64,000 nucleotides of DNA from a virus, in UHGV virus genome UHGV-0021788; one strand, given 5' to 3'. Position numbers and translations under genes: made by a program. The notes under the pieces were generated by a model. The model was given only the letters and a program-made list of their open reading frames with translations, searched no databases and was not told the DNA's origin. Below, piece after piece: positions 4,901-58,175 of the stretch (the first letter of the stretch is position 1; each line of letters opens with the position of its first letter).

Positions 4901-7900
4901 GTTTGTAGTTGATATATTACTGTTATAGGATTATTTTGTAACCAAGAATTAAATTCCGATACCGTAACAAAATCAGTATATATAACTACTTTTTTATTTA
5001 TAGTAGAAATACAATTATAATTAGAATCCCAAGGAGAATTATTCCAGTAAACAAATGGTATCTTATCACAAATACCCTGATGTTTATAATCATTAGTCCC
5101 ATTAATCATACTATTATCTATAGTATAACTACGTTTCCCACTAGGTTCAATTGTTTTAAAATACCAACCTTCACTACCATTAAAAGTAACACTACCACAA
5201 TTTCTCTCTATATACCATTTACCGTCTAATATTACACATTTATCCTTAACTCCATTAGGTAATCCTCTTAATGGTTCATTTAATAAAATTTCTTTTTTAT
5301 TCATAGCATATGGTACATAAGAAGTTTTTTCACCTTCTTCTAAAATTACGGTATTAGGTTTAAATAAGTATGAACCGACATTATCACCATTATTTGATAT
5401 AATCGACACCTCATACAAATCTTTATCAGAAGTTGTAAACGAAGTGCTTATTTCTGTTTGTGTAGATGCTACTATATTATCAGTAGTTACTGCTTTTTTA
5501 CCAACTTGTTCTCTTACCCATACAGCCCACATATGAGAATTAGTATTATTAATCGTTTTGTTTATATAACTTAAAGTATATTTGGTATTTGGTTTTAATT
5601 TTACATTTTGCCAATATGTTTTTTGTCTATTAGCATACCCTTCATTATCTACTTCAAGATTTAATATTGGCAATAAGTTCTTATTTTGTGATAAAATTTC
5701 GATTTTATTACCTTCACATTCACCAACACTTTTCATTCCTTTAAAATATCCAAAAGGTTGCTCTACTTTAGGTGTTACTACTATTTTAGAAGCATTAAAT
5801 CCTATGCCATTAAAATCTAAAGTTCTCCATCCTTTATCTAAAGTAGTACAAGTAATTTTATTTAATCCTTTAACTACATCTATATTAGATAATGAAGCTC
5901 CATTCATATATAATAAATTCAATTTACCCACGTTGTCACTTTCAAATTGAATTGTATAATCTGTATTTGCATACACATATTTTAAAAGTATACTTAATGC
6001 TCTAAACACTACTTTATCTATAGGCACTACAGTATCTACATCTAAATGTCCATTAGTATAACTATCTAATAATAAATTATCATTAGATAATATTATTTCT
6101 TGTGTAGGTGTTGCTAACTCATATACTACTGTTATAGGATTTTGTTGTAGCCAAGATTTAAATTCATCTAATGTGGATATATCACAACCAATTTGTATTT
6201 TACCCGTACCAGTATTTTCAATAATACTTGTTTTTAATTTAGTCGTAGAAATAGTTGGTAGTTTATCACATATACTTGTTAATACATTTGCTTTAGCATT
6301 AGTAAAATTATTGTATATATATTTATAATAAGTTTTTTCAATATCACCATTTCCACTCCAACGTTCACCATCACTACCATCTAATACAACCTCTTTATAT
6401 CTATGATTATGTATTATATTATTACCACTTTGTTCTATTGTATCTCCTTCTAATAATGGAGAATTTAAGTATAATGTTTTAATAGATTCTTTATAAGGTT
6501 CATAATCTGTTGCAGTAGTACCTTCTTCTATTTGGATATAACCTATATTATCCAATAAGTAATTAACATATTCCATACCATTAGATATTTGTACATATAA
6601 ATATCCATCAACTGATTGTATAGTTTGTGTCTTGTTAAAACCTATAGTAGCATGATTCATCCATGCTCTACTACTAGATTTACCATAATCTTTGTTTTGA
6701 GTAATACATAAATAAGGTGTCATTTCACCATTAGTTATTAATGAATCTGCTCCTACTGATATATTATAAGTTTTACCCTTTTCTACTTTAAGTGGATAAT
6801 ACCAAAATCCATAATTTGTATACTCAGTACCAAAATTTGATTGATTACGAAGTAATTCTATATTTAATTTATTCTTACCAGTAACTTTATAATCTACTTT
6901 ATATTTACCAACTTTAGTTGAGTCATAATTTGTAAAGTCGTAATTAGTATAATCTCCTTCTACTACCATAATTCTATATTTAACACTACCAGTTGTATTA
7001 GTATTATCTAAATAATTAACTAAGCATCTAACACATCCATTTAAATCATTACTAGTAGTAATTGCATATGTAAAAATTCCAGTTTTACCCGAATCTATTT
7101 GAAAACGTGACATAATAGGTAATTGTGCATTAGTAGAACCATTCGTAATAAATAACATTGAATTCAAAGTATTTTCTACAATATCAGTTACTATAGTATA
7201 AGTTGTAGAAGGTTTTATAGTTGCTAAAGGTTTTAACATTGCATTTTGATAAGTACCATCAGCAGTCATTTTTATATATTCACCGTCTAATGTTACTTTA
7301 GGATTTAATGAATAAAAGTCATCTCTACTACTGAATTTATATAAATTCTCAGGTATTAACTTATTCTCAAATGAAGATTTCATACCTGTAAAGTAATCAG
7401 GTATAGGTTTATTAGTATAATCTCCTTCTAAAAGCATAGGTTTTGTAATAGTAATTGAACCTTTACTAATACCTTTATCTAATACAATTTCAATTTTATC
7501 ATCCCCCCATCCAGAAGCAACATCTTTATTTGTAACAAATGTAGTACAAACCAACCCAATAGATTTTGCAGGTATTCTCTTTGTTATACCAGTAGTATAA
7601 CCATTTGGAAAATTTATGTTAAATTCATTTACAAGATTCTCATCACGTACAAGTGTATTTTGTGTTATGTAACTAATCAAAGTATATGTTGTAGCATTTT
7701 TAAAACCTTGAGACAAATGAAAAGTACAATATCTGTAAGTTCCTGCACCACCCTGACTTTCATAATCATAAGTATAAGTATTATCTCCGTTATCTAAAAA
7801 ATGAGTAGCATTATTGATAATATCAGTAATCATATTAACCAAAGTGTTACCATATATATTAGGTCTACATTTACCATCATATTCACCTTGTAATGCTATA

Positions 7901-16743: not shown

Positions 16744-16780
16744 TTTACTTTTAATAAAAGTTTTAGTATATTATATATAT
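16744..16780 (+). promoter_or_regulatory. Conserved sigma-A-type promoter cassette (copy 1a, degenerate -10)
   Basis: 'tttacttttaataaaagttttagtatattatat'; member of a 10-copy family. Confidence 0.5.
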
Positions 16781-16797
16781 AAAATTTTTTAAATATG

Positions 16798-16846
16798 TTT
16801 ACTTTTAACAAAAGTATTAGTATAATATAAGTAAAAGGAAGGAGAT
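16798..16846 (+). promoter_or_regulatory. Conserved promoter + RBS cassette (copy 1b) driving 16853 gene
   Basis: 'tttacttttaacaaaagtattagtataatataagtaaaaggaaggag'; -35 TTTACT, 17-nt spacer, -10 TATAAT, then GGAGG. Confidence 0.65.
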
Positions 16847-18831: not shown

Positions 18832-18841
18832 AATAAAAACA

Positions 18842-18881
18842 TTTGACTTTTAATGAAAATATTAGTATTATATAAGTAAAG
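18842..18881 (+). promoter_or_regulatory. Conserved promoter cassette (copy 2)
   Basis: 'tttgacttttaatgaaaatattagtattatataagtaaag': -35 TTGACT, 17-nt spacer, -10 TATTAT. Confidence 0.6.
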
Positions 18882-21019: not shown

Positions 21020-21068
21020 TTTACTTTTAATAAGAGTTTTAGTATAATATAAGTAAAGGATAATAGTA
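21020..21068 (+). promoter_or_regulatory. Conserved promoter + RBS cassette (copy 3)
   Basis: 'tttacttttaataagagttttagtataatataagtaaagga'. Confidence 0.65.
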
Positions 21069-22589: not shown

Positions 22590-23083
22590 ATGGCAAAAGC
22601 AAAAAAAGAAATAAAGAAAATAATATGTACTACTTGTGGAAGAGAATTGCCTGAAAAAGATTTTGGTAAATCTTACTCATTTAGAGATAAACTAAATGGA
22701 AGATTGCCAATTTGCAAAGACTGTTGTGCTAGTTTATATGATAAGCTAATGGTAGATTATCAAGATGAAATGAAAGCATTATATAGATTTTGTATGATAT
22801 TAGATTTATATTTTTCTAAGGATACAGTTATGGGATTAATAAGTAAGAATAGAAATTCCGAAAGTAATCTTGGATATTTATATGTATTAAAATATAATTT
22901 AGTACAATATAAAAATAAAACATTCCAAGATACAACGGCATTTGTAAATATATTTGGTATGACTGAAGAAGAAATGGAAGAAGCATTATATTTGAATACT
23001 GAAAAAACAAAAGAAGAAATAGAAAGAAAAACTAAAAAAATAGTTACTCCAGAAGTAATCAAGCGTTGGGGTAATTGCCCCCT
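22590..23083 (+). CDS. Exon 1 of a three-exon gene immediately upstream of terL (possible small terminase subunit; Zn-ribbon N-terminus 'CTTCGRELPEKDF...PICKDCC')
   Basis: ORF runs into the group I intron 5' region; the in-frame stop at 23091 lies inside conserved intron sequence 'ccctatgtttataaaaaacatag'. Exon end approximate. Confidence 0.5.
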
Positions 23084-23439
23084 ATGTTTATAAAAAACAT
23101 AGCAAACCTTTTGAATTGCTGGAAACCCCTAAAGCTTAATACACTACAACGTGGCTAGAAATGGCGAACGTGAATGTTACGAAAGTAGAAAAAAGTTGTT
23201 AAGATGATATATGGTTAAATCCTAAGTATTGTTAATAATGGGCAATCAGCAACTAAGATTCTAAATGATAATTTATCATATGAATAAAGTCCAACGACTA
23301 GAGCATAGCTCGTACACTCAAGCGAGTGGAAGTGGAAGGTGTCCTATAAATATAGGATAATGATATAGTCTAATCTCATATGAAAATATGAGCAGTCGAA
23401 AGACGGTATGTATGTGGCGAATACATATGAATATAAATG
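23084..23439 (+). mobile_element. Group I intron A (family 1, no ORF, ~356 nt)
   Basis: P 'gaattgctggaaa' (23117), Q 'aatcagcaac' (23243), R 'ccaacgactagag' (23292), S 'aatgatatagtc' (23360). P2 hairpin 'ctatgttt...aaacatag'; P9-like hairpin and 3' 'gaatataaatg'. Confidence 0.8.
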
Positions 23440-23809
23440 TTCAGATTTAGAGTTAGACGATTATATTTTTCTTGAAGATAGATATAATCAGATGCTTTTA
23501 GCCTATGATGATAAGAACCCTTCATCATTGTGGTCATATCAAGAAATATGTATGAATTATTTACTCCTTAGAAAAGATAGAGGAAATGTTCAACTTCAAA
23601 AAAGTATCCAAGAAATTAATAGTAAATTACAAGCAGATTGTAAAATGAAGTTATCACAAATAGATAATGATGATGATGATAATGCTTGTTTTGGAAAGTT
23701 TATAGATAAAATAGAATTATATGAACCATGTAATAAAAAATTACCATTCTTTGAAGATATAGATGGAATAAGACAATACTTAAAACGATGGAAACAAAAA
23801 GCCACGACT
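23440..23809 (+). CDS. Exon 2 of the terminase-small-like gene
   Basis: Open frame continuing from 23408 ORF; ends at 'gccacgact' before the intron B conserved block; in-frame with exon 3 by U/G-rule junctions. Confidence 0.45.
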
Positions 23810-24203
23810 GTATAGAAATATGCAGTGGACACAGATTTAATTGCAGGTAATTCCTAAAGCCTTACACCAAAACGGAAGGTGAAAACCTAAACGGCAACGG
23901 TACGAAAGTAGAAAAAACGTAAGGATGAATATAAGGTTAAATCCTAAGTATTCAAACATATTTATATATGTTAAAATGGATGTTCATGCAAGGAAGTTCT
24001 TAAGTGATATATTATTATATCATATGGAAAACCTTCAACGACTAGAGTTTAAATACTCGTAGGGTATAAGTGATTGATACTCGAAAAGGTCTGCCCTTAA
24101 CAGGTAGTGCTGAAGGTGAAGAAATAGTCTAGTCACTCTAGGAAACTAGGTGCTTAGAATTAACTAAGGTTTATAGTGTAGCGACTATAAATAAATATTA
24201 ACG
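23810..24203 (+). mobile_element. Group I intron B (family 1 variant, no ORF, ~394 nt)
   Basis: P 'taattgcaggtaattcc', Q 'ggatgttcatgcaagg', R 'ccttcaacgactagag' (24033), S 'agaaatagtctag' (24127). Its 5' and P/Q regions are near-identical to the TMP intron K. Confidence 0.75.
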
Positions 24204-24920: not shown

Positions 24921-24989
24921 AGTAATCTGCCTAGATATACATATATATAAAAGTATATCCGTAATTGGGTAAAATCGGTAAAAGCTAAG

Positions 24990-25044
24990 TTTTACTTTAC
25001 ATTTTATAGTTATTATAGTATAATATAAGTAAGGAGGGGATATT
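24990..25044 (+). promoter_or_regulatory. Conserved promoter + RBS cassette (copy 4) inside intron C
   Basis: 'ttttactttacattttatagttattatagtataatataagtaaggagggg'. Confidence 0.6.
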
Positions 25045-25794
25045 ATGAGTAGAGTTGGTGAAAAAATTATTGATAATTATGGTGTTGAAATGGAAATTAT
25101 AGAATATACAAATTGTAAAAAAATAAAAGTAAGATTTAACGATGAATATGGAGTTATAATCAATACAAGATATGATTGTTTTATAGATAAGAGAATAAAA
25201 AACCCATATAGAAAATCATTTCAAGGAGTAGGATATATAGGTGTAGGTAAATATTCTTCAAAAAACACCGAAATAATGAATTGTTGGAGTAATATGTTAA
25301 AAAGATGTTATAAAGAAAACGGTAAAGATATAACATATGAAGATTGTTATGTTTGTGAAGAATGGCATAATTTTCAAAACTTCGCTAAATGGTATGAAGA
25401 AAATTATTATGAAGTAGATGGTAAATCTACATTTCTTGATAAGGATATATTATATAAAGGTAATAAAATATATTCTCCTGAAACTTGTGTGTTTGTACCA
25501 AGGTTAATAAATAATCTTTTTACCAAGAGACAAAATGAACGTGGCTTATATCCTATTGGTGTAGAACCATATAAAAACACAAATAAATTTATATCAATAA
25601 TTAGTGAAACTCATAGATATACAAAAACAAAAAGAACACATTTAGGTATTAGAGATACAATTGAAGAAGCATTTTATTTATATAAAATATATAAAGAAAA
25701 ATTAATAAAAGATATTGCAAATGAATATAAGAACGATATACCTAAAAAATTATATTATGCATTACATAATTATAAAGTAGAAATAACAGATTAA
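25045..25794 (+). CDS. Intron-encoded putative homing endonuclease / DNA-binding protein with AP2-like domain (different family from the other six)
   Basis: 'THLGIRDTIEEAFYLYKIYKEKL' resembles the AP2 DNA-binding domain common in phage HNH/NUMOD homing endonucleases. Lacks the 'LPFDFYLP' motif. No HNH/GIY-YIG motif recognised by eye. Confidence 0.45.
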   Translation: MSRVGEKIIDNYGVEMEIIEYTNCKKIKVRFNDEYGVIINTRYDCFIDKRIKNPYRKSFQGVGYIGVGKYSSKNTEIMNCWSNMLKRCYKENGKDITYEDCYVCEEWHNFQNFAKWYEENYYEVDGKSTFLDKDILYKGNKIYSPETCVFVPRLINNLFTKRQNERGLYPIGVEPYKNTNKFISIISETHRYTKTKRTHLGIRDTIEEAFYLYKIYKEKLIKDIANEYKNDIPKKLYYALHNYKVEITD

Positions 25795-26051
25795 ATAAAA
25801 TATGCCAATACCGAGTTAACTGATAAAATTAAAAAGTTGTCAGTAATGTAGAGCATAGAGATTGAACCTTTGTAAGAACTATTATATAATAGTTCTTTTT
25901 TGATTACAAAGAATAAAATATTTCCAAGAGTATCCAACACCTTATTGTATGAGGTGAAAATGTATGCCAAGCTTATAGGAAACTATAAGAGGTGGATGTG
26001 TGAATTGACACACTATTAATAGATAAAAAGCTCCACGATAAAACTTTGAGA

Positions 26052-26083
26052 TGAGTACAGAATGATACAAGGAGTAACATATA
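26052..26083 (+). CDS. Large terminase mini-exon 2 (32 nt) encoding '(V)DEYRMIQGVT' = Walker B
   Basis: Joining 24920|26052 gives '...VLVVDEYRMIQGV' (canonical TerL Walker B 'hhhhDE'). 5' exon ends in U, intron in G. Confidence 0.55.
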
Positions 26084-26442
26084 GCTCCCTATGTTTATAA
26101 AAAGCATAGAAAAACTCTTTAATTGCTGGAATATCCTAAAGCCAATTAAACTACAACGTAGAGTTAAAACTCAAGCGTGAACGTGGCGAAAGCAGAAAAA
26201 ATTAATTGGATAGCATAAGGTTAAATCCTAAGTGCTATAGACAATGGACAATCAGCAGGGAAGTCCCTTTAAAATGGGAAACCTTCAACGACTAGAACGC
26301 AAGTTCGTAGGGTGTAAGTGATTGACACTCGAAATGGGAGTTACCTAATTAAATAGGTAGTGATATAGTCTAGTCTTATATGAAAATATAAGCAGTTCAT
26401 AAGAGAACGTACATAATGTAGCGAATTATGTAGAATATAACG
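26084..26442 (+). mobile_element. Group I intron D (family 1, no ORF, ~359 nt)
   Basis: P 'taattgctggaat' (26120), Q 'aatcagcaggg' (26253), R 'ccttcaacgactagaac' (26293), S 'gtgatatagtctag' (26372). Confidence 0.8.
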
Positions 26443-26580
26443 GTTTTGATACCTTAAACTCAGTATTAAGACCATTCTTAAACTGTGTTAGAATACCAAA
26501 ATTTAAAAATAGAGATGATGGAAAATACGCAGATTATCCAACTGAGGAAAACCAAGAAATTTACTTAAGCAGTGCGTGGT
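26443..26580 (+). CDS. Large terminase exon 3 ('CFDTLNSVLRPFLNCVRIPKFKNRDDGKYADYPTEENQEIYLSSAW')
   Basis: Only open frame across this 138-nt segment between introns D and C'; frame-consistent with exons 2 and 4 under U/G-rule junctions. Confidence 0.5.
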
Positions 26581-26685
26581 AAATTCGTGCCACTTTATAT
26601 AGCGATATATAAAACAAATTGGGCAAAATCGGTCATAGTAAATCGTGAGATTAAGCTGATAAGAGAGACTAAGTATTGTTTAAAA

Positions 26686-26740
26686 TTTTACTTTTAATAA
26701 AAAATATAGTATAATATAAGTAATGGGGGTGAATATTAAA
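26686..26740 (+). promoter_or_regulatory. Conserved promoter + RBS cassette (copy 5)
   Basis: 'ttttacttttaataaaaaatatagtataatataagtaatggggg'. Confidence 0.6.
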
Positions 26741-27472
26741 ATGAATAAAATAACTACAGAAATAGCATTAAAACGAATTAATGATAAAATAAAAGAAACT
26801 AATACAACATTATATGTTGTTAATTTTGAATATGTAAAAAAGAAAAGTATAATTTATATGAAATGTAAAGTATGTGGAAAAGAAGTTGAAAGAGATTATT
26901 GGAGATTTATTCATGCAGGTGGAAAATGTGAATGCCAATATAAATATAGAAGATGGACTGAAGAAAGATGCATAGAATTAATAAAAAATAATGATTATAA
27001 TGATGAATATGAATTTGTAAATTTCAATACAGGAGCTAATATTACAATAAAACATAATATATGTAATCATGAATTTACTAGAGCTTCTTGGAATATAAAA
27101 GACAATGGTTTAAAATGTCCATCATGTTATCCACTTGATAGTGCAGGAGAATTGAATATTGAGAATTATTTAAAATCAAAAAATATTTTATATCAAAAAC
27201 AGAAAAGATTTAAAGGATGTAAAAATAAAAAGACATTACCATTTGATTTTTATTTACCACAATATAATTGTTGTATAGAATTCGATGGCGAACAACATTT
27301 TAAACCTGTCGAACACTTAGGTGGAGAAAAACACTATAATAATACAGTCATAAATGATGAAATAAAAAATGAATTTTGTAGAAAAAATAATATACTTTTA
27401 TTAAGAGTACCTTTTTATAAAATAAATGATGTAAATGATATTATTGAAAATTTTTTAAACAATATAAGTTAA
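26741..27472 (+). CDS. Intron-encoded modular homing endonuclease: 2 Cys/His DNA-binding-like repeats + C-terminal Vsr/DUF559-like (PD-(D/E)xK-variant) nuclease
   Basis: 'TLPFDFYLPQYNCCIEFDGEQHF...NILLLRVPF' matches the Vsr/DUF559 pattern (D...hIE.DG..H...R). ATG 26741 after 'GGGGGTG'. Confidence 0.65.
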   Translation: MNKITTEIALKRINDKIKETNTTLYVVNFEYVKKKSIIYMKCKVCGKEVERDYWRFIHAGGKCECQYKYRRWTEERCIELIKNNDYNDEYEFVNFNTGANITIKHNICNHEFTRASWNIKDNGLKCPSCYPLDSAGELNIENYLKSKNILYQKQKRFKGCKNKKTLPFDFYLPQYNCCIEFDGEQHFKPVEHLGGEKHYNNTVINDEIKNEFCRKNNILLLRVPFYKINDVNDIIENFLNNIS

Positions 27473-27712
27473 TACCGAGGTAAGATAGAAAATTAAAAAG
27501 TTCTATCCACCGTAACGCATAGAGATTGAACCTTTGTAAGAACTATTATATAATAGTTCTTTTTTAATTGCAAAGAATAAAATATCTCCAAGAGTGCCCA
27601 CTTCTATATTGTATAGAAGAAAATATATGCTGGACTGGGTATGAATCGACATACCATAATGCGAGGAAACTCCCAGAACTAGAGGATAAAAAGCCTTTAG
27701 GGTAACAAAACG

Positions 27713-28797
27713 TTGAGAATCATTGGAGTTATGACCTTTATTCTTCCCATGTTAAGAAAATGTTAGCAGGTGATGATTATTTTGTATGTAATCTGCCTTA
27801 TCAATTATCTGCCTATCATGGAATATTAACTAAAAAAAGAATACAAGATATTTTATCAGATGAGAATATGTCAGAAATATCATTTACGATGGAATTTGAA
27901 GCGTTATTTTATTCTGATAAAGATACTAGTTATTTTAAATCAAGTGATATATTACCTTGTAGAACATTAGAGTATGCATGGTATCCTCCAACACCAGAGG
28001 AATATTATAGAAATAAAAATAAAGAGAAAAAGAGTTATTATTTAAAGAAATTAAATGATAAAGAACTTAGAGTAATCAGTTGTGATATAGCTTTAATGAA
28101 CAGTAAAAATGGACATGACAATGATAATGCCGTATTTACTTTTATAAGAAGTATTCCAAAGAATCAAAATTATATATCACAAGTTTTATGGCAACAAACT
28201 CATGAAGGATACAAAGCTAAGCAATTAGCATTAAATATAAAAAGATTATATTTTGATACTCAAAGTGATTATATAGTACTAGATACTGCCGGTAGTGGTA
28301 TATCTGTATTAGATGAGTTAGGTGAATACACAACTGATGTAGAAAGAGGAATAGTTTATCCTCCATTAAAAGCAATGAATGATGAAAAATATGAAGAACG
28401 TTGTGGTTATTCAGAAGCACAAAAATCTATATTTTGTGTTAATGGTAGTACAAAGTTTAACCATGAAATTGCAGTAACTCTTAAAACAGCATTCCAAAAT
28501 AAAACCATTAGATTATTAAAAACACAATTTGAAGCAGATGATTTTATAGAGGGATATAATAAAATGTCTCCTAAAGAACAAGCTGATAAGTTGATGCCTT
28601 ATGTTCAAACTTCTTTAATGCAAGATGAAATAACTCAATTGGAATATGAAGTAAAAGATTCTTATATTAAACTTTATGAAACAACAGGTAAACGTAAAGA
28701 TAGATATTCAAGTTTAGCTTATGGTAATTACTTTATAAGAGAAAGAGAAAAAAAATTAAAGAAAAAGAAAAAAGGTGGATTAGCTAATCTATGGTAG
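27713..28797 (+). CDS. Large terminase exon 4 (nuclease domain)
   Basis: 'FENHWSYDL...RVISCDIALMNSKNGHDNDNAVFTF' (RNase-H-like nuclease first Asp motif); size and position before the portal gene. Confidence 0.7.
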
Positions 28798-30577: not shown

Positions 30578-31160
30578 TTGAAAGGAGGTGTAATTATGGA
30601 TAACAAGCTTAGACTACCTATTAGAAAATTTGAAAGTACAGATGAAGTTTTAGCTAATACAAATTTTAAAAAAGTTAAGATATACATTATGCATACAGGT
30701 GAAAATCTTAATGGTTCTGTATTTTCATTAGATAGTATAAATGATTCAATAGATACACTTGCAAACATTCCAATATTGGCATTTGTTGAAAAAACTGATG
30801 GACAAGATAATAAAGATTTTGCAGGACATGAAACTGATTTAGATATATTTACAGATAAAGATGGAACAATTAAAGTAAGAGAATATTATAAAGAAGTACC
30901 TATTGGAGTAATACCTGAAAGTAATGAATATTTCTTTGAAGAAAAAGATGGAGAAACATACTTAGGGTGTTATGGTTACATATGGAAATGTTATTCTAAT
31001 GATGCTTATGACATATTAGAAGAAGACCAAGAAAAAGAAGTCTCTATGGAAATTTATATAAATAATTGTTCTTATGATAGAAAACAAAGATGTAATATTA
31101 ATAAATTTGAATTTCTTGGAGTAACAGTTTTAGGTGCAAAATATCCAGGAGTAATTAGCT
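30578..31160 (+). CDS. Head-morphogenesis gene exon 1 (protease/scaffold-like N-terminal part); exon end approximate
   Basis: ORF (TTG start, 'GGAGGTG' RBS) runs into the intron E 5' block 'tccctatattaag'. Position between portal and capsid genes. Confidence 0.4.
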
Positions 31161-31362
31161 CCCTATATTAAGTGATTAGTATAGAAAATTCTCTGAATTG
31201 CTTGTAATCCCTAAAGTCAACTAAACTACAACGTGATTGGAAACGATGAGCGTGAACGTGGCGAAAGCAGAAAAAATTAGTTGAATGGTATATGGTTAAA
31301 CCCTAAGTACTTTTGCAATGGGTGTCTAGCAGGTAAGATTCTAAATTTATTTAAATTAAATG

Positions 31363-31416
31363 TTTGACTTTTAATAACAAAATAGGTATAATATAAGTAA
31401 ATGGGGAGGTGATTAA
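31363..31416 (+). promoter_or_regulatory. Conserved promoter + RBS cassette (copy 6)
   Basis: 'tttgacttttaataacaaaataggtataatataagtaaatggggagg'. Confidence 0.65.
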
Positions 31417-32505
31417 ATGGCATGGAATAAAAATTCTATAAAAGAATATATAGATAAAACACAATATGAATTAATTAATTTTAAAATATTCGATGGGTTG
31501 AATTCTATAATATTAATAAGATGTAAAAAATGTGAAGAAGTTTATGAAATAAAATTCAGCAACTTTAAAAGAAAAAAAGATAAGAATTATTGTAAGAATT
31601 GTGAATTTATAAATAAAAAGAATGAGCTTATCAATAAATGTATAGAATTTGCAAATGATATAAATTATAAAGTTCTTAATGTTTTTTACGAAAACGAAAG
31701 ATGGTTTGTCGAATTACAATGCAACAATGGTCATGCTTTATATATTACTAGAATTGAACATTTTTTAAACAATCATTTATGTAGACAATGTGCAAATGAA
31801 TCTTTGATTATATGGGATGAAAATGCTATTAAAGAAGCTATAGAAAAAGAGAAATATCAATTAATTGAGATTCTTGAAAATAAGGGATATGAAAGTAAGA
31901 TATCTATTTGGTGTGGTAATAAAAATCATAGCCCATATACAACATATTTTTCAGAATTTCAAAAAAATCATAGATGTAGACAATGTTATAGTGGAAGTAA
32001 AATAAAATGGAAAAAAGATGATATAATTTGTTATGTTGAAAAAGAAAAGGAAAAATTTATAGATTTTATAGAATATAATGGTTTCAATTCTACTATTAAA
32101 ATATTATGCGAAAAGCATGGAGAATACAAAATTAGATTCGACCATTTCATAGAAGGTCAAAGATGCCCTATATGTAAAGAATCTAAAGGAGAAAAGAAAA
32201 TAAGAGAAAATTTAGAAAAACTTAATATTGAATTTGAACACCAATATACTTTCAAGGACTGTAAATGTTATAAAGAATTGCCATTTGATTTTTATTTACC
32301 TCAATATAATATGGTTATAGAATATGACGGAGAACTACATTATCAAATAGTTGATTATTTTGGTGGATTAGATAAATTTATAAATATCAAAATAAGAGAT
32401 ACTATTAAAACTGAGTATTGCAAAAATAACAATATTAAACTTATAAGAATACCATATTGGAATTTTAAAAATATTGAAAAAATAATTTGTCAAGAATTTA
32501 ATTAA
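31417..32505 (+). CDS. Intron-encoded modular homing endonuclease: 4 Cys/His repeats + Vsr/DUF559-like nuclease
   Basis: 'ELPFDFYLPQYNMVIEYDGELHYQ...NIKLIRIPYW'. Repeats each ~60 aa with C..C/H...C..C spacing ('CKKCEE', 'CRQCANE', 'CRQCYSG', 'CPICKESKGE'). Confidence 0.65.
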   Translation: MAWNKNSIKEYIDKTQYELINFKIFDGLNSIILIRCKKCEEVYEIKFSNFKRKKDKNYCKNCEFINKKNELINKCIEFANDINYKVLNVFYENERWFVELQCNNGHALYITRIEHFLNNHLCRQCANESLIIWDENAIKEAIEKEKYQLIEILENKGYESKISIWCGNKNHSPYTTYFSEFQKNHRCRQCYSGSKIKWKKDDIICYVEKEKEKFIDFIEYNGFNSTIKILCEKHGEYKIRFDHFIEGQRCPICKESKGEKKIRENLEKLNIEFEHQYTFKDCKCYKELPFDFYLPQYNMVIEYDGELHYQIVDYFGGLDKFINIKIRDTIKTEYCKNNNIKLIRIPYWNFKNIEKIICQEFN

Positions 32506-32760
32506 ATAAATATGAATAAACTTCAACGACTATTGAAATAATTGTAAGAACCTTATCAGAGGTTCTTTTTGATTGCAATTAAAGTAAAGTACTCTTAAGT
32601 AAGAGGAAGTAGAGAATGTCTTATTTAATTAATGTAAGATGAAGTAGAAAATGTCTTATTTAATTAATGTAAGATAATGATATAGTCTCAACGTTTAGCG
32701 AAAGCTAAAGAAGTTCATAAGAGAACTGCGTAAGAATAACGAACTTATGTGAAGATATTG

Positions 32761-34562: not shown

Positions 34563-35017
34563 ATGAGACGAATGTCAGAATTAAATATAACTGATGTAAG
34601 AGATATGGCTTACAGTCTATATAAAGGTAAAACTGCTAATTTTGATGCTGAATCTGCAAATGAAGCTATCAAAAATATAATACTTAAAACAGCTGGATGT
34701 GAAGATGGTTGGGATATGTATAAATTCATGGATAACAAATACAAAGTATTTGCTATAATGAGAGAAATATTAACACCAGTTGTAGCTGAAAATGTTTTAG
34801 CAAGATTTGAATCTTGGGTAGACATAGAAGACATAGCTTTAGGTGATACTAAAGACTTTGAAATAATGAATCAAGAATTATTTGAAATAGGATATGTAGC
34901 TGATGGTACTTCTGAATTAAGAAGACAAAACTTAACTCATGGTAAAATCACTATGACTGGTTTCCAATTAGGAGCTAAATTATATACTGAATTTGACGAT
35001 TTTAGAAGGGGTAACTT
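34563..35017 (+). CDS. Major capsid protein exon 1
   Basis: ORF ends in the conserved intron 5' block ('tagacagccccctatgtttgtaaaaagcatag'). Joined product ~340 aa in head-module position, with strong RBS and a downstream hairpin. Confidence 0.55.
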
Positions 35018-35228
35018 AGTTTACTAGACAGCCCCCTATGTTTGTAAAAAGCATAGCAAATCCTTTTAATTGCTGGAAACTCCTAAAGCTCAATTCACTA
35101 CAACGTAGAGTTAAAACTCAAGCGTGAATGTTACGAAAGTAGAAAAAAGTAATTGAGATTACCCAAGGTTAAATCCTAAAGGTGAATGAATGGACAATCA
35201 GCAGGGAAGATTTTGATTAACACTTAAT

Positions 35229-35275
35229 TTTTTATAAGTTTATGAGTATAATATAAATAAATGGAGGTGATGAAA
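35229..35275 (+). promoter_or_regulatory. Conserved promoter + RBS cassette (copy 7, weaker -35)
   Basis: 'ttataagtttatgagtataatataaataaatggaggtg'. Confidence 0.5.
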
Positions 35276-36187
35276 ATGGCAAGAAAGATTTGGAATGAAA
35301 TTACAATAAAAGAATTTATAGAAAATGAAACAAATTATAAATTCATATCAATAGTTAAATTAAACGGAATGAAATCAATGGTATTAGTATGGTGTGGTAA
35401 TCCTAATCATAAGCCTTATAAAGTTCGATTTGATGCATTTAAAGGTACTTCTAAAAAAGAAGGAACGAGATGTGAACAATGTAGAAGAGAAAAAGATACC
35501 ATTTGGACTAAAGATGAAATTATAAAATATGTAGAATCTCAAGATTATAAATTTATAAGATTTGTAAAATTTAATAAATATGCAAGTACAATAGAAATTC
35601 AATGTAATAAAGGACACGAATCATATGAAACATACTTTAGTAATTTCTATAATAATAGAAGATGTTTTCAATGTCATATAATATGGTCTAAAAAAGATAT
35701 TATTAATTTTGTAGAATCTCAAGATTATAAATTTATAAGATTTATAACATATGAAAAAAATAATAGTTTAATAGAGATAAAGTGTCCTAAAGGACATATG
35801 AATCAAGTTAGATTTAGAAAATTTAAAGAAGGAACTAGATGCCCAAAATGTAATAAATCTAAAGGTGAGGAAAGAGTAAAAGATATATTAAAAGAAATGT
35901 GTATAGATTTTAAATCACAATACAAATTCAAAGATTGTAAATGTAAAAAAGAGTTGCCATTTGATTTTTACATACCTTCATTAAATATTGCAATAGAATA
36001 TGATGGAATACAACATTTTGAAATATTACCACATTGGGGTGGCATTGATAAACTTATAGAAACTAAAATACATGATGAAATAAAAACACAATATTGTAAA
36101 AGAAAAAGAATAAAACTTATTAGAATTCCTTATTGGGAATTTAAAAATATAGAAAATATACTTATAAAAGAATTAGTGTTAAATTAG
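35276..36187 (+). CDS. Intron-encoded modular homing endonuclease: 3 Cys/His repeats + Vsr/DUF559-like nuclease
   Basis: 'ELPFDFYIPSLNIAIEYDGIQHFE...RIKLIRIPYW'; ATG 35276 after 'GGAGGTG'. Confidence 0.65.
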   Translation: MARKIWNEITIKEFIENETNYKFISIVKLNGMKSMVLVWCGNPNHKPYKVRFDAFKGTSKKEGTRCEQCRREKDTIWTKDEIIKYVESQDYKFIRFVKFNKYASTIEIQCNKGHESYETYFSNFYNNRRCFQCHIIWSKKDIINFVESQDYKFIRFITYEKNNSLIEIKCPKGHMNQVRFRKFKEGTRCPKCNKSKGEERVKDILKEMCIDFKSQYKFKDCKCKKELPFDFYIPSLNIAIEYDGIQHFEILPHWGGIDKLIETKIHDEIKTQYCKRKRIKLIRIPYWEFKNIENILIKELVLN

Positions 36188-36345
36188 AATAACCTTCAAC
36201 GACTAGAGCATAAGCTCGTACACTCAAGTGAGTGGAAATGGAGGATGCCTAGAAATAGGTAGTGATATAGTCTTGTCTCATGTGAAAGCATGAGTAGTTC
36301 ATAAGAGAACGGATTAGGAGTAACGACCCTAGTTGAAAATAAACG

Positions 36346-40373: not shown

Positions 40374-40559
40374 ATGGCTACACTTTTTGCTATAAAAGAT
40401 GCTATAGATTTAAAAATAACTAAAAAAGGTGAACAAACAGTTTTCACTACAATAGACTATTTAAATGATTGTCAAATAGAAATGGACTCAGAACAAGTAT
40501 ATGCACTTAAAAAAGGAGATAACTACATATCATTCTCAAGTGGTAGAACAGGAATAACT
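40374..40559 (+). CDS. Major tail (tube) protein exon 1
   Basis: ORF ends 'GITY*' inside the intron 5' block; junction 40559(U)|41699 gives '...SGRTGIT-ALTMNCQV...' in frame. Confidence 0.55.
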
Positions 40560-40765
40560 TATTAATAATAAAACGTTCCCTATGTTTGTAAAAAGCATAG
40601 CAAATCCTTTTAATTGCTGGAAACTCCTAAAGCTCAATTCACTAAAACATAATCTGAAAATGATAAGTGTGAATGTTACGAAAGTAGAAAAAAGTAATTG
40701 AGATTACCCAAGGTTAAATCCTAAAGGTGAATGAATGGACAATCAGCAGGTAAGATTTATATTTA

Positions 40766-40822
40766 TTTTACTTTACTTTTAATAATTAAATTTGTATAAT
40801 ATAAGTAAATGGAGGTGGCAAA
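40766..40822 (+). promoter_or_regulatory. Conserved promoter + RBS cassette (copy 8)
   Basis: 'ttttactttacttttaataattaaatttgtataatataagtaaatggaggtgg'. Confidence 0.6.
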
Positions 40823-41536
40823 ATGGGAGTTATTAAATATGATTATGATTTCGTTAAAAAATATATCGAAAGTTTTAATTATAAATTATTAAGTGATTAT
40901 ATTGGTATACATGATAAAATAACATTAAAATGTCCTAAAAACCATATTTATAAAACTTCATTTAATAGTTTTTATAGTAACAACTGTAGATGTGGAAAAT
41001 GTAAAAATTTAGAAACAGCAAATAAGAGAAAATATTCAATTGAATACGTTAAAGAATATTTAAATTTATTTGGATATAAATTATTAACAGAAAACTATAT
41101 TAACAATAAACAAAAATTAAAAATAGAATGTGAAAAGGGACACATTTTCTATATGAGTTTTAGTAAATTTAAAAATGCAAAACAAAGATGTCCAGTGTGC
41201 AAAATGTCAAGTGGCGAACAAGAAATTTATAGAATATTACATAAATATTTTGATGACATTGAAATACAATATAAATTTAATGACTGTAAAGATAAAAAAA
41301 GACTTCCATTTGATTTTTATTTACCTCAATATAATTGTTGTATAGAATTTGATGGTATTCAACATTTTGAATATCAGCCACATTTTGGAACTTATTCTAA
41401 ATTTTTAAAACAGCAAAAAAGAGATGAAATAAAAACAGAATATTGTAAAAAAAATAATATAAAATTAATAAGAATAGCTTATTATGAATTTGATAAAATA
41501 GATGAAATTATAAAAAATGAATTAAAAGTAAAATAA
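40823..41536 (+). CDS. Intron-encoded modular homing endonuclease: 2-3 Cys/His repeats + Vsr/DUF559-like nuclease
   Basis: 'RLPFDFYLPQYNCCIEFDGIQHFE...NIKLIRIAYY'. Confidence 0.65.
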   Translation: MGVIKYDYDFVKKYIESFNYKLLSDYIGIHDKITLKCPKNHIYKTSFNSFYSNNCRCGKCKNLETANKRKYSIEYVKEYLNLFGYKLLTENYINNKQKLKIECEKGHIFYMSFSKFKNAKQRCPVCKMSSGEQEIYRILHKYFDDIEIQYKFNDCKDKKRLPFDFYLPQYNCCIEFDGIQHFEYQPHFGTYSKFLKQQKRDEIKTEYCKKNNIKLIRIAYYEFDKIDEIIKNELKVK

Positions 41537-41698
41537 TAAATATGAATAAACTTCAACGACTATCCCTAAATGGGAGTACACTCAAGTGGGTGGAAATGGA
41601 GGATACCTAGAAATAGGTAGTGATATAGTCTACTCTTACATGAAAATGTAAGCAGTCGAAAGACGGTATGAGATTAACGACCTCATGCGAATGTTAAG

Positions 41699-42070
41699 GC
41701 ATTGACAATGAATTGTCAAGTAATGGACGATGACTTCTTATGTATGATGCTTGGTGCTACTAAAAGTTCAGATGGTAAAATATCTGTAACATCTTCAGTT
41801 CCAAACCAAAGTTATACAGCAGAAGGTACTTTTAGAACTACTTCATTAGCTGGAGACCAATACAAAAAAATAAAATTCTACAACTTAAAAGCACAAGTTT
41901 CAGCTGACTTAACTTTATCTGCTTCTGATGTTTCTGAATTCTCATTAAAATTAGATATAATGGCAGATGATACTGGTAAAATATTAGATATAGAAAACAC
42001 TACTGGTGGTATATCTGCTGGATTTAATGAACCAGAAGTTGTTTCTATAAAAACTAAAGCTGATAAATAA
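41699..42070 (+). CDS. Major tail (tube) protein exon 2
   Basis: Open frame from the intron terminal G through 42070; Ser/Thr-rich beta-type sequence typical of siphovirus tube proteins; strong terminator follows. Confidence 0.55.
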   Translation, partial: ALTMNCQVMDDDFLCMMLGATKSSDGKISVTSSVPNQSYTAEGTFRTTSLAGDQYKKIKFYNLKAQVSADLTLSASDVSEFSLKLDIMADDTGKILDIENTTGGISAGFNEPEVVSIKTKADK

Positions 42071-46100: not shown

Positions 46101-48327
46101 AAATGAGTTTGCAAGTGAAGTTAATAATTTAAAAAATTCTGCAATGGATAATGTTATTAGAGAATCTTTTGATAACATTAAAATACCTAATTTAAATAAA
46201 CAACTAGAAGCAGTTAAAGATTTAATGTCACTTAAAAATATGGATACTAGTGGTATAGATGCCTTAATAGAAAGAACTAAAAAACTATCAAGCTTAAGCG
46301 TAGATAAAATAGGTCAAGAATTTAAGGAAATACAAAATGCACTTGGTAAAGAAATTAATTTACGTTTAGGTACTAGTGGTATTAAAGATATAGAATCTGC
46401 ATTAAAAGTCATATTACAATATAGAAATGAATTAAAAAATAAAATAGCAGTAGAAACAGACCCATCAAAAGTAAAAGACCTTAATAGTCAATTAGAAAAA
46501 ACTGAAAGCATAATAGAAAAACTTAAAGGTCAAACAAGTAATGGGCTTGGTGCAAGTTTAATTGGTGATGCTGACAAAAACAATTTGAAACAATTAGAAG
46601 ATACTGCTGATAAATTAAAGAAAACATTCTCTAATTTAGAAAACGAAGTAAATAAATTAAACAATGAAGCATTGAATAAAGTTGACATAAGTCAATTAAG
46701 AGAAATGAATGAAGTTGTTAATGATGTAAAGAAAAATTTAGCATCTATTGGAGAAGGAAATGTTAATGTTAATTCAATAAATAAAACAGCACAAGACATA
46801 GAAAAATTAAAAGGACTAATAGAAAACACTAAAAAGACAATTAGTGATATGAAATTGGAAGTTTCATTTAATGTTAAATCAAATGAAGCAGAACAATATT
46901 TAGCAGGTTTTGAATCAGCATTATTAAGATTAGGTAAATCAACCAGTGGAATAAATGCTTTAAAGAGTGAATTTGAAAGTATAAAAAATTCAGCTAATGG
47001 AAATTTAAGTAGTGCCATAAAAATGATTGATGACTTTATTAACAAATTAAAACAAATGGGTAGTAAACAAGGCTTAGGCAACATAAGTGGTACTATGTCT
47101 CAATATAAACAATATACTAAAGAATTACAACAAGCCATGAGTGGGGCATTAAAATCTAGTGGTTCTGATACAGCTAAAGGATTTGAACAACAAGCTGAAC
47201 GAATAAAGAGTGCTATAAAACGTTTGGTTGCAAGTTTCAAAGAATCACAAAGAGAATCGGCTAATGCTTTTAATGGTAGTACATTTAGTGGTTTTTCTTC
47301 TAAATATGAAGCTGAAATAAATAAAGTTGAAAAAAGCATAAACAGATTTAAATCATCAATGCAAAACTTAGATAAAGCTGTAAACTTTAAAGGCTTTCAA
47401 ACAAATTTAGGTAAAGGTTTATCTGAAGAATTTGACCAAATAATGGCGAAAGCTGAACAATTAAGGGATAAATTAAAGAGTGCATTATCTTCTGGTACAT
47501 TTGATATAAGTGAAATAAATAGAATAAAAGATGAATTAAAACAAGTTGAACAAGAAGCAGATTCATTAAAACAAAAATCTATAGTATTAAAATGTGCTGA
47601 AAGTATAACAGAATTAGAAAGACTTAGTGGTAAGATAAAAGATATAGGTGGAGACACATCAAAAATAGAAGAATTAAAAAATAAATTTGTTACACTTGGT
47701 ACAGGTATAAGAGAAGGTACTACAGGAATAGATGATGCAATTTCTAAATTAAAATCCTTATCTTCCGAAGCACAAAGAACTGCTAGTTCTTTTGAATCAA
47801 CTACTGGTAAAATAGGTTCTTTTGGTTCTAAAATACAAGGTTTCTTTAGTTCTATAAAGAATTCATTTAGTACTTTTACTATTGGTAATTTAATGGCTGA
47901 TGGTATAAATCAAGCTGTTTATCAAATAAAAGATACTATAACAGGTTTAGATGAAGCAATGGCTGAATTTAAAAGGGTTGCTCCTGATAACTTTAGTTTA
48001 AATACATCTAATTTACAAAGTGTTGCTAATGAAGCAAGAGAAATAGGTATTAGTGTTGGACAATCAGTAGAAGATGTTATCACTGGAATGAGTACTGCAT
48101 TACAAGCAGGTGCAGGTGATATTAAAACAGCTTCTGAAATAGCTAAGAGTTCTGCTATATTCCAAAATGTTACAGATATGAGTGCAAAGGGTGCTTCAAA
48201 AGCTATTTCTTCAATGGTTAACCAATATTATGATATGGATTCAGCATTAAATCAAGTTGACCACGGTGTAGGTAAATCCGTAAAAGGGTACAACAACCTA
48301 ACCGAAGCGATGGATTTGGTAATTGAT
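43192..48327 (+). CDS. Tape measure protein (TMP) exon 1 (~1712 aa); 3' end approximate
   Basis: GTG start after 'AAGAAAGAGTGGTGG'; long coiled-coil repeats; conserved TMP region '...NLTEAMDLVID'. The ORF-track tail 'LPFILEII*' is intron sequence conserved with intron J ('ttgccgt(c)tt..ata(g)aaata...attagaggg'). Confidence 0.65.
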
Positions 48328-48615
48328 TTGCCGTTTATATTAGAAATAATATAAATTATTAGAGGGCAAAATCGGTGAAGACTAAGTTTTTATAAATATG
48401 TTGATACCGAGATAACTTATTAGATTGCGAAAGGCTAATAAGTATTGTAGAGCATAGGAATTGAATAAATATAATATTCCCAAGAGTGCCCTCCATTCTA
48501 ACGTAAAAAGACGAGGATGAAAATATATGCCATACTGAGCTAGAATTGACTAGCTGATGAAAATGAGGGAAACCTCCAGAGCATAAGATAAAAAGCTTAT
48601 GGATAATAACAATAG
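48328..48615 (+). mobile_element. Group I intron H (family 2, no ORF, ~290 nt); boundaries approximate
   Basis: P 'aaaatcggtgaagactaagt' (48369), Q 'gataccgag' (48402), R 'gtagagcataggaattgaa' (48447), S 'gaaaatatatgcc' (48521), 3' 'gataaaaagcttatggataataacaatag'. Confidence 0.65.
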
Positions 48616-48640
48616 AAATTACGCTGGTTAGAATTAGCCA

Positions 48641-49008
48641 GGCTATATGGAAACATGTAGTACAAATCTCTTTTGAATTGCTGGAAAGGACTTAGAGCCT
48701 ATTGAACTACAACGTAGATGGAAACATCAAGCGTGAATGTTTAAAAATCAATAGGATTGTTTAATCAGCAGGTAAGATTCTAAGTAATAATTTTATATTA
48801 TTATATGAATAAACTTCAACGACTATCCCTTGGATGTTGAAATACATCAATAGGAGTACGGCTCAAGTGATTGGAGTGGGTGAGAATCCCTTAAATGGAA
48901 GTGGAAGAGGACTTATAAAGGTTCAAGATATAGTCTACTCTCGTAGGAAATCTACGAGCAGTCCTTTTTTGGACGGTATATGTGTAGCGAACATATATGA
49001 ATATTAAG
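48641..49008 (+). mobile_element. Group I intron I (family 1, no ORF, ~368 nt); 5' boundary approximate
   Basis: P 'gaattgctggaaagg' (48676), Q 'taatcagcaggtaagattc' (48764), R 'aacttcaacgactatccc' (48823), S 'aagatatagtctac' (48928), 3' 'gaatattaag'. Retains 'atgaataaacttcaacg', the sequence found at the 3' end of HEG insertions. Confidence 0.75.
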
Positions 49009-49396: not shown

Positions 49397-49768
49397 ATGT
49401 AAGATTAGTAAATTTATATAAATTTTTATAAAATACAAAAATCTTAAAATTGCCGTCTTTGATAGAAATATTAAAGATAATTAGAGGGATGTATCGGTGA
49501 AGCCTAAGTCGAAAGATATGGTAATACCGAGGGTATCTTAACAGAGAATATCCGTAACGCATAGGGAGTGAGCGATATTGTTAGCAATAACCTCCCCACG
49601 AGCTTCCTCCACGATTATATATAGGATAATCACTTATAGATGTTGCTACTATAAGTTCTAACGTTAAACGAGAGTGAAAATATATGCTGGACTTATGAGA
49701 AATCATAAGAAGTGGATGTGTGAATCGACACACTATTAATAGATAAAAAGCTCCACGATAACAAATCG
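49397..49768 (+). mobile_element. Group I intron J (family 2, no ORF, 372 nt)
   Basis: P 'gtatcggtgaagcctaagt' (49490), Q 'aataccgagg' (49521), R 'ccgtaacgcatagggagtgagcg' (49551), S 'gaaaatatatgctgg' (49677), P9 'gtggatgtgtgaatcgacacac...ctccacg'. Junction 49396(U)|49769 gives in-frame '...AIAGN-KTQAGVFQALMTGW...'. Confidence 0.75.
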
Positions 49769-55700: not shown

Positions 55701-56615
55701 GTAAGAAACAATTAGTTAAATATGGCATTACATTTGATGAAGATGGCAATATAGACAATCTATCAAAAGCATTGAAAAAATTAGATAATCTACAAGATAT
55801 GGAAGATTTAAAAGATTTAGCTGATGAATATAATGATTATAAAGATTCAATAGATGATGCTAGTAAATCAATTGAAGAAGAAACTAATAAACAACTTGAA
55901 TTAAAAGATTCAATGATGGAAATTAGAGAAGAAATGAGAAAACTTAGAGATGATGCATGGGTTAAAACTTATGAAAATGGTCTAAAAGTTATTCAAAATC
56001 GTATTGATACAATAGATTCTTTATTAGATTTAGAAGATGAAAATCAATTTAGTTTACTAAATCAAAAAATTGAAGAATATAAGAATTTAACTAAAGCGAC
56101 TGAGGATAGTTTGGCTTATCAAAAACATAGAAAAATCACTATGCAAAAAACATTGATTGATTATGGTTTCACTATTAATGATGATGGTACAATAGATGGA
56201 ACTGCTAATAAATTAGAACAACTTAAAAATACATTATCTGAAACTGAATTTGGTATAGTAAGTGATACATTAGAAGATTATTTTGATACTGCTTTAGATA
56301 CAATTCCTGAATTAGAAAGAGAATTAATAAAATATCAAAAAGATTTAAAAGATATACAAAATACTAAACTAGAAAAGACTAAAACTATTGAAGAAAAAAT
56401 TACTGAAATATATAACGATGAAATAGATAAAAGAACTAAAAAGATACAAGAAGAAGCAGAAGCACAAACTAAAGCACTTAATAAAGCCAAAGAATCTTAT
56501 CAGAGATGGAGAGACGAAGTTGACTATAAAGATGATTATAATAAACAATTAAAAACTGTTGAAGATTTACAAAAGAAAATAGAAATAGCAAAACGAGATG
56601 ACAGCCTAACTGGGT
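49769..56615 (+). CDS. TMP main exon (~2282 aa)
   Basis: Open frame from the intron-J terminal G (upstream of annotated 49796 start) to 'DSLTG'; TM-like hydrophobic hairpins near the N-terminus of this exon ('LGLFKGVLMGIAFTAVVKGI'), long coiled coils. Confidence 0.7.
52557..52800 (+). repeat. Three tandem ~84-nt in-frame repeats in TMP ('EGDTSGAEKVEKEVDNV..K.GTAK')
   Basis: Copies starting at about 52563, 52646 and 52730. Confidence 0.75.
52845..53060 (+). repeat. Tandem 'KGQLEVNGQAITD..V' repeats in TMP
   Basis: 'gaaaaaggtcaattagaagtaaatggtcaagctataactgat' duplicated (52930, 53015) plus a diverged first copy. Confidence 0.7.
53215..53840 (+). repeat. ~9 tandem Cys-containing ~20-aa repeats in TMP ('TINCQDNATSKINSIA' / 'FTINCTDNA..K...')
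   Basis: Repeated 'aattgtcaagataatgcaa' / 'aattgtacagataatgc' units. Confidence 0.7.
54460..54820 (+). repeat. Lys/Ser/Thr low-complexity tract (~120 aa of 'KKKSTSKKK...') inside TMP
   Basis: Continuous 'aagaagaaatcaactagtaagaaaaag' style repeats; composition almost purely K/S/T. Confidence 0.8.
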
Positions 56616-56825
56616 AATGTTGCCCTAGTCGTAAAGTAATTTGCGACTGAAAATAGATTTAATTGCAGGTAATCCCTAAAGCTCTACACCACAATATATC
56701 TGAAAAGAATATATGAAGGTACGAAAGTAGAAAAAACGTAGAGATTCTCATATGGTTAAATCCTAAGTGAGAGTAACAATGGGTGTTCATGCAAGGAAGA
56801 TTCTAAATTAAATTATTTTAAATAT

Positions 56826-56877
56826 TTTACTTTTAATAAAATAAGCAGTATAATATAAATAAGGAAGGGGTGAAATT
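56826..56877 (+). promoter_or_regulatory. Conserved promoter + RBS cassette (copy 9)
   Basis: 'ttttacttttaataaaataagcagtataatataaataaggaagggg'. Confidence 0.6.
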
Positions 56878-58002: not shown

Positions 58003-58175
58003 TTTAACATGAATAACCTTCAACGACTAGAATGCGAATTCGTAGGGTGTAAGTGATTGACACTCGAAAAGGTCTACCCTTAATATTAAGGTGAAGAAAT
58101 AGTCTAGTCTCATATGAAAGTATGAGCAGTTCATAAGAGAACGGTATATGTTTAGCGAACATATATGAATATAAG

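Follow-up and report, generated by a model that had tools for sequence, protein, structure and literature searches.

Organization of the five paralogous intron ORFs

The window, the whole 64,000-nucleotide stretch of virus genome UHGV-0021788 analyzed here, is an AT-rich phage genome segment (~26% GC) with a virion module on the plus strand from ~21 kb. It contains five paralogous intron ORFs, designated HEG 1 to HEG 5, all on the plus strand and all ending in a common C-terminal domain of ~110 aa; identity among the five is 31-33% overall and ~50% over these C-terminal 110 aa. HEG 1 (26741-27472) encodes 243 aa, composed of two CapR-like, predicted zinc modules (~26723-26938 and ~26939-27130) followed by a Vsr-like nuclease domain (~27140-27469). 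HEG 2 (31417-32505, 362 aa) and HEG 5 (56878-58002, 374 aa) each possess four modules ahead of the nuclease, those of HEG 5 being two 'W-type' and two 'Y-type' units. HEG 3 (35276-36187; 303 aa, or 308 aa from 35261) has three modules and HEG 4 (40823-41536, 237 aa), the protein modeled with AF2, has two. The longest reading of the ORF ending at 27472 starts at 26723 and would give 249 aa; comparison with the other four ORFs marks 26723-26740 as a probable Shine-Dalgarno region, and the start originally placed at 26741 is preferred.

A six-frame hmmsearch of the 64-kb window with the nuclease profile returned exactly five genes, at E 1e-45 to 1e-50, with no further match under E 0.7, which reduces the family from the six members originally predicted to five. 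The sixth intron ORF of the window, at 25045-25794, encodes an HNH/AP2-type homing endonuclease unrelated to these five; it matches PHROG 953/374 ('HNH endonuclease') and, weakly, an AP2 domain. The C-terminal motif first proposed for the family proved too strict, its first part fitting two of the five proteins and its second part three, and a relaxed form, LPFDFY[LI]...N..IE[FY]DG..H[FY] ... I.L[LI]R[IV][PA][YF], fits all five.

Introns and their alleles in related phages

The predicted intron location of the ORFs is confirmed by alleles in related phages. The comparison set comprises related IMG/VR contigs from sample 3300045988 (147-204 kb, L numbers below), 93-99% identical in shared genes, in which the intervening sequence around each HEG is either precisely absent or present without its ORF. 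All five host genes (terL, protease-scaffold, capsid, tail-tube and tape-measure) read through after intron removal, and terL, once spliced from its four exons, can be aligned over its full length with the terminases of Clostridioides phage LIBA2945 and phage SPbeta, both of which are uninterrupted. Absence of the whole intron with restoration of the frame was found at five sites: terL C, terL B, MCP, tube and TMP.

The capsid-gene (MCP) intron, at 35012-36345, carries HEG 3 and has a group I core that aligns to terL intron B. MCP is uninterrupted in L003/L004, where it is 99% identical and the exons are joined (...GATTTTAGAAGAGG^TAGAACTGATTTTGC... in L003), and the same intron and HEG are present in L006-L009, with HEG 3 orthologs in L006-L011. 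The tube group I intron (40555-41699) lies in the tail tube-like gene 40374-42070 and leaves an open spliced frame; this site of HEG 4 is uninterrupted in L010 and L013 (...AGAACAGGAA^CATTGACAATG... in L013). The TMP group I intron (56615-58177), near the end of the tape-measure gene, likewise leaves the spliced frame open, and the site of HEG 5 is empty in L017 and L020 (...AGCTTAACTGGA^CAAAAACGTTTAGC... in L017). The group I intron of the protease-scaffold (prohead) gene, with its ORF in P6, spans 31152-32760, its 3' end being predicted by analogy only. L003 and L014 retain this intron and lack the HEG 2 ORF cassette, and no intron-less allele was found at the protease site among the related contigs.

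The ORF-less terL intron B (26075-26442), which is missing from L025 and L026 and matches RF00028 at 72.8 bits (E 1e-18) when scanned alone, served as the reference group I core for the four ORF-bearing introns of the same type (type 2). With their ORFs deleted, the protease, MCP, tube and TMP introns align to it over the whole core (P3, P4-P6, P7, P8 and the P9 GAAA hairpin, the last with compensatory changes); in all four, the ORF cassette replaces the P6 loop. Judged from these alignments, four of the five HEG-bearing introns are clearly assignable to group I with the ORF in P6.

Intron-less alleles set the type-2 5' boundaries at 26074/26075, 35011/35012, 40554/40555 and 56614/56615, with 31151/31152 predicted. 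Each boundary falls one base before the U of a covarying P1-like helix (GGAG/CUCC, GGGG/CCCC or GGAA/UUCC), so that the last 5'-exon base is G or A instead of the usual U and the U.G pair uses the first intron base; these introns end in G. In terL introns A and C, the canonical U precedes the 5' site and the intron likewise ends in G. For the type-2 introns, canonical cleavage behind the U was rejected, as it would require a non-G last base in four of five and would produce a stop codon in the tape-measure gene. Also rejected for this type were a 5' splice site after the U of GGAGU and a 3' splice site at TAACG^A, in the loop of a covarying hairpin, both contradicted by in-frame stops and by the intron-less alleles.

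The intron load amounts to at least 12 intervening sequences in ~35 kb of virion genes (23063-58177). Rfam scans of the whole window and of 11-20 kb stretches reported only two ORF-less group I introns, both upstream of terL (23063-23392, 85 bits; 23802-24152, 44.5 bits). Shorter segments scanned by themselves revealed terL intron B and, in the tape-measure gene, three introns with RF00028 matches at 48311-48553 (36 bits), 48619-48958 (68.9 bits) and 49435-49709 (28 bits); long scans miss most introns. When 18 kb of the window were compared with GenBank phages by megablast, no close relative appeared. The sole match was the capsid-gene intron core (35066-35179, 114 nt), 83% identical to unannotated sequence of Staphylococcus phages PMBT8, PT1-1 and PT94, which points to an intron type common to distant Firmicute phages.

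terL intron C, the host of HEG 1

HEG 1 resides in terL intron C, which spans 1132 nt (26581-27712, plus strand). The intron-less L025 allele joins 26580 to 27713 exactly (...TACCTTAGTAGTGCCTGGT^TTGAGAATCATTGG...), leaving the HEG 1 site empty, and an ortholog of HEG 1 is present in L026. The final base of the 5' exon is a U that lies in a P1-like GUGGU/GCCAC pairing, and the intron itself terminates in G. RF00028 was not matched by the 3' part of this intron or by its ORF-less relative in L027. The 3' core resembles 48467-48601 (nhmmer E 4e-6), a segment adjoining the 36-bit RF00028 match. With RF00028 silent and the nhmmer resemblance as the one link to group I, we call terL intron C self-splicing-type; it is probably a group I intron. 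terL intron A (24921-26048), which carries the HNH ORF 25045-25794, is of the same type and lacks that ORF in L025.

A 12-bp perfect hairpin (AAGAACTATTAT/ATAATAGTTCTT) followed by a T run occurs in terL introns C and A (27538-27567 and 25874-25903, respectively), 65-80 nt beyond the ORF. In sequence it looks like an intrinsic terminator inside terL; as it is kept in ORF-less copies, it may simply be an intron helix.

Cassette heads and free-standing endonuclease ORFs

HEG 1 is preceded on the plus strand by a promoter-like site (26687-26715; TTTACT-17 nt-TATAAT) and then by the putative, GGAGG-like Shine-Dalgarno sequence GGGGGTGA. The same head, TTTACT/TTGACT-17-TATAAT with TATAAGTAAATGGAGG, precedes most intron ORFs, the unrelated HNH ORF of terL intron A included, with -10 boxes at 25019-25024, 26710-26715, 31387-31392, 40795-40800 and 56849-56854. 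Of this head, the 35276 ORF retains only the -10 box and the Shine-Dalgarno portion. Similar promoter-like sequence lies upstream of ordinary genes (16744-16833, 18838-18878 and 21020-21055), and the cassettes thus appear to use the phage's own promoter type. A free-standing HNH ORF (58872-59582; Pfam HNH_4, 22.3 bits) sits between the tape-measure gene and the next gene, and L017, L018, L021 and L022, the related contigs covering this position, lack 58879-59571.

Tandem CapR-like modules

The N-terminal regions comprise 15 modules, distributed 2, 4, 3, 2 and 4 over HEG 1 to HEG 5 and matching the module profile at E 1e-14 to 1e-26. A six-frame search of the 64 kb with the repeat profile found nothing else of note outside the five genes. 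The two to four Cys/His-spaced repeats of ~60-65 aa anticipated from the sequence are therefore borne out as modules of ~62 aa (59-75 aa; mean pairwise identity 30%, n = 15) with four conserved Cys/His positions, and so are the copy numbers, except that the 40823 ORF has two where two or three had been counted. Shared by the modules are a helix (W/Y-x-K-E-x-I-x-x-[YF]-[IV]-E), a strand of hydrophobic residues, a turn carrying C-x(2-4)-H/C, the segment F-x-x-F and C-x(1-2)-C. The first ligand pair, C-x(2-4)-H/C, is present in all 15 modules with small register shifts: its Cys occupies the aligned column in 14 of 15, and its second ligand is His, replaced by Cys in two modules. The second pair (C..C or C.C) is invariant (15/15). 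The alignment thus retains all four ligand positions, the point on which the reading of the repeats as metal-binding had been made to depend. Two flavors are distinguished, a 'W-type' (W..E.I..FVE..[DN]Y.FI) and a 'Y-type' (Y.YVKEYIESFGY.LLS).

Pfam CapR (PF21817) matches HEG 5 at 29.0 bits, above its gathering cut-off of 24.2, and DUF4379 matches HEG 2 (25.8 bits) and HEG 5 (25.2 bits) above a cut-off of 24.5. Eight of the 15 single modules match CapR below cut-off, and most metagenomic homologs carry precomputed CapR, DUF4379 or DUF723 matches. The best match of the module, a weak one, is a DUF4379 protein of a mitoribosome assembly intermediate; Pfam labels DUF4379 a 'probable treble clef zinc finger'. 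These profile matches support a relationship of the repeats to the CapR-homology/DUF4379 treble-clef families, and the modules are predicted zinc fingers.

A Vsr-like C-terminal nuclease domain

The HEG 4 model reached a pLDDT of 92.9. A fold search placed the C-terminal domain with Vsr, I-Bth0305I and DUF559, and Foldseek gave this top group as well; RAP-domain mitoribosomal proteins were also among the fold matches. An alignment of 60 homologs shows no variation at D164, E175, G178, H181, D201 and K204 (HEG 4 numbering) and conservation of at least 90% at E132 and D177; all five paralogs retain the six candidate catalytic positions. The active site of the EDxHD family is described as the counterparts of Vsr D51, H64, H69 and D97, together with an acidic residue where Vsr has F62 (PMC3239194). 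In hhalign columns, E132, D164, E175 and D177 fall on Vsr E25, D51, F62 and H64, an alignment to a single Vsr sequence with a probability of 1.4%. From motif spacing and the numbering of PMC3239194, H181 and D201 would fall at Vsr H69 and D97; D177 then takes the x position of EDxHD, and E175 is an additional acidic residue.

Sequence profiles gave fainter signals. The window proteins match Pfam DUF2726 (E 1e-3) and DUF559 (E 0.026) below threshold, so that the DUF559 match expected of the C terminus was indeed seen, yet under the cut-off. Among 27 homologous nuclease domains, the weak matches are to DUF2726 (12/27, best E 1e-7), DUF559 (11/27), PvuRts1I_N (10/27) and RAP (4/27). Searches of PDB sequences with full-length and nuclease-only profiles returned nothing below E 0.4, and neither Vsr nor 3R3P was found by PDB profile searches at E up to 10; an NCBIfam search gave no match. 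With sequence similarity to DUF559 and I-Bth0305I below threshold, the link rests on fold and motif. The original Vsr/DUF559/I-Bth0305I assignment accordingly holds in fold and motif and fails in significant sequence similarity, and the lack of a significant match to I-Bth0305I or Vsr agrees with the 'outgroup' status reported in PMC12350094. The model supports a Vsr/PD-(D/E)xK-like nuclease fold for the C-terminal domain.

Site-specific lineages and family distribution

Orthologous HEGs at one site are 93-97% identical, whereas between sites the identity of HEGs is ~50-60% in the nuclease and only ~30% in the arrays. The tube gene of L010 and L013 carries a 3-module HEG at a different site, 45 nt upstream of the HEG 4 site (window position 40554), and so speaks neither for nor against a module number fixed by site. 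Relatives carry extra introns, most with same-family HEGs of 2-5 modules, at sites that are empty in the window. Such sites lie in the portal gene (L025 6558-7873 and L027/L029 ~6500-7850; window site ~29733), in the tube gene (L014 8615-9998 and L013 9618-9996; window site ~41808) and in the tape-measure gene (L017 3512-5724 and L020; window site ~58395). The tube gene of relatives has second and third intron sites. The phage lineage is a mosaic of occupied and empty intron sites.

Beyond this lineage, the proteins match PHROG 559/9084/7140 (E down to 1e-76), and a full phmmer scan with a limit of E 1e-3 retrieved 22,251 cluster representatives (clusters at 50% identity), ranging from 150 to ~670 aa. 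By tblastn, the family is present in 556 GenBank phage records, some of them annotated 'homing endonuclease EDxHD' or 'group I intron-associated VSR homing endonuclease'. Campylobacter phages contain up to 19 matching places per genome.

Proposed homing mechanism and alternatives

The five ORFs are most likely paralogous intron-encoded homing endonuclease genes of a 'CapR-like array + EDxHD/Vsr-like nuclease' type. Architecture, fold, residue conservation, intron location and the presence or absence of intron and ORF among close relatives are directly seen. We infer that the modules bind zinc and DNA and that the proteins cleave and home. Each gene would form a self-contained cassette of promoter-like site, Shine-Dalgarno sequence and ORF, lodged in a peripheral loop of a self-splicing intron within an essential virion gene; the intron would splice out of the mRNA, and the host gene would still work. 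The two to four N-terminal zinc modules, each predicted to run from a helix through a β-hairpin with C/H ligands to a C-x2-C knuckle at the start of a helix, may bind an extended target in the intron-less allele that a co-infecting relative carries. The C-terminal Vsr-fold domain would then cut near the insertion site with Mg2+, using the candidate residues E132, D164, E175, D177, H181 and D201 (HEG 4), and repair by recombination from the intron-bearing genome would copy intron and HEG into the cut site.

Modular target recognition tuned to each insertion site, as originally suggested, is plausible, with different HEG lineages occupying different sites. A stricter form, in which the tandem modules make up a DNA-reading array and every ~62-aa module reads a fixed number of base pairs, strikes us as rather doubtful. 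Under it, an array would gain new targets as its modules are shuffled, duplicated or lost; HEG 5 combines 'W-type' with 'Y-type' modules.

The ORF-less copies make intron and ORF separable, and the endonuclease target could therefore differ from the intron-less exon junction. The ORF cassettes might be mobile alone, invading or exchanging between resident ORF-less introns, or cutting elsewhere, with the intron as a safe harbor. ORF-less forms of the protease intron (L003, L014), of terL intron A (L025) and of a terL C-like intron (L027) would fit, as would the common promoter/Shine-Dalgarno head and similar tail shared by different introns and the many paralogs at many sites in one phage group. 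At five sites, however, it is the entire intron that is either there or missing, and each site has its own HEG lineage (93-97% identity vs ~30% in the N terminus), the pattern that site-specific homing predicts; loss of the ORF from an intron is, moreover, an expected decay path of the homing cycle. We therefore consider movement of the cassette alone improbable and retain homing of intron and HEG as the preferred reading.

Loss of endonuclease activity deserves consideration because CapR itself is a domesticated binding domain of homing endonucleases, and both the RAP-domain fold matches and the weak DUF4379 match of the module lead to mitoribosomal proteins. The window proteins could by this route be domesticated or inactive, serving as DNA- or RNA-binding regulators or as splicing helpers, in the manner of CapR or the RAP/FASTK Vsr-like domains. 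Had catalysis been lost, the six candidate catalytic positions would not be expected to persist in every one of the five paralogs and to be invariant or at least 90% conserved over 60 sequences, and intron polymorphism among near-identical genomes argues for ongoing mobility, which makes domestication very unlikely. The 'HNH endonuclease' label, given to PHROG 559 and to many of the tblastn matches in GenBank, is scarcely tenable for these proteins: Pfam HNH was not found at E up to 1, the conserved domain has a predicted Vsr/PD-(D/E)xK-like fold, and the Cys/His clusters lie in the repeated binding modules instead of a ββα-metal nuclease motif.

Five paralogs at five defined sites constitute a natural experiment. 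Matched intron-less targets exist at four allele-confirmed HEG sites (terL C, MCP, tube and TMP) in genomes that are 93-99% identical, and these paired intron-plus and intron-minus alleles make target-site mapping and DNA reading by the modules directly testable. A modular array, if real, would account for the spread of one family to many sites within a single phage lineage, and would provide a new programmable scaffold for binding, with a small nuclease attached. For annotation, the terL, capsid, tube and tape-measure genes are split in this phage group and gene callers will fragment them; the endonuclease family itself is very large (~22,000 50%-identity cluster representatives) and routinely mislabeled 'HNH endonuclease' or 'hypothetical'.

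Comparison with known systems

Proteins of the same architecture, encoded in phage group I and II introns, were described in 2025 as forming a large outgroup to the EDxHD/Vsr homing endonucleases (PMC12350094). As in that family, several ~60-aa CapR/DUF4379/DUF723-related domains precede a ~100-aa EDxHD/Vsr-related C-terminal domain. Judged by sequence, the window proteins are further members of this bioinformatically described family. They differ in module number, which is three to five there and only two in two of the window members (2-5 in relatives), and in their host genes, which are terL, capsid, tube and tape-measure genes in another phage lineage.

I-Bth0305I, the EDxHD prototype (PDB 3R3P), shares the nuclease fold and the order of N-terminal binding domain and C-terminal nuclease; the order originally noted for the window proteins is thus correct, but does not set them apart. 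Its N terminus contains two NUMOD/helix-turn-helix motifs instead of CapR/DUF4379-like modules, and its spacing from the His to the last Asp is 9 residues, compared with 20 in the window proteins. Vsr, DUF559 and DUF2726 have the core fold and the D...E.DG..H...D motif in common with the window proteins, which remain under the Pfam cut-offs. Vsr, unlike them, has a zinc site of its own and intercalating residues for T:G mismatches, and lacks a repeat array.

CapR is a DNA-binding repressor derived from phage homing endonucleases and needs two Cys pairs for DNA binding (PMC8096241). The same kind of N-terminal zinc-finger domain (PF21817) occurs in CapR and in the T5orf172-type HEGs of vibriophage ICP1, where it is joined to T5orf172 (GIY-YIG superfamily) or stands alone as a repressor; in the window proteins, by contrast, it is predicted to be repeated two to four times and joined to a Vsr-like nuclease. 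I-TevI (GIY-YIG) is likewise a modular phage intron endonuclease, its nuclease tethered to small DNA-binding units that include a Cys4 zinc finger, but it has the opposite domain order, a different nuclease fold and one zinc finger in place of a tandem array.
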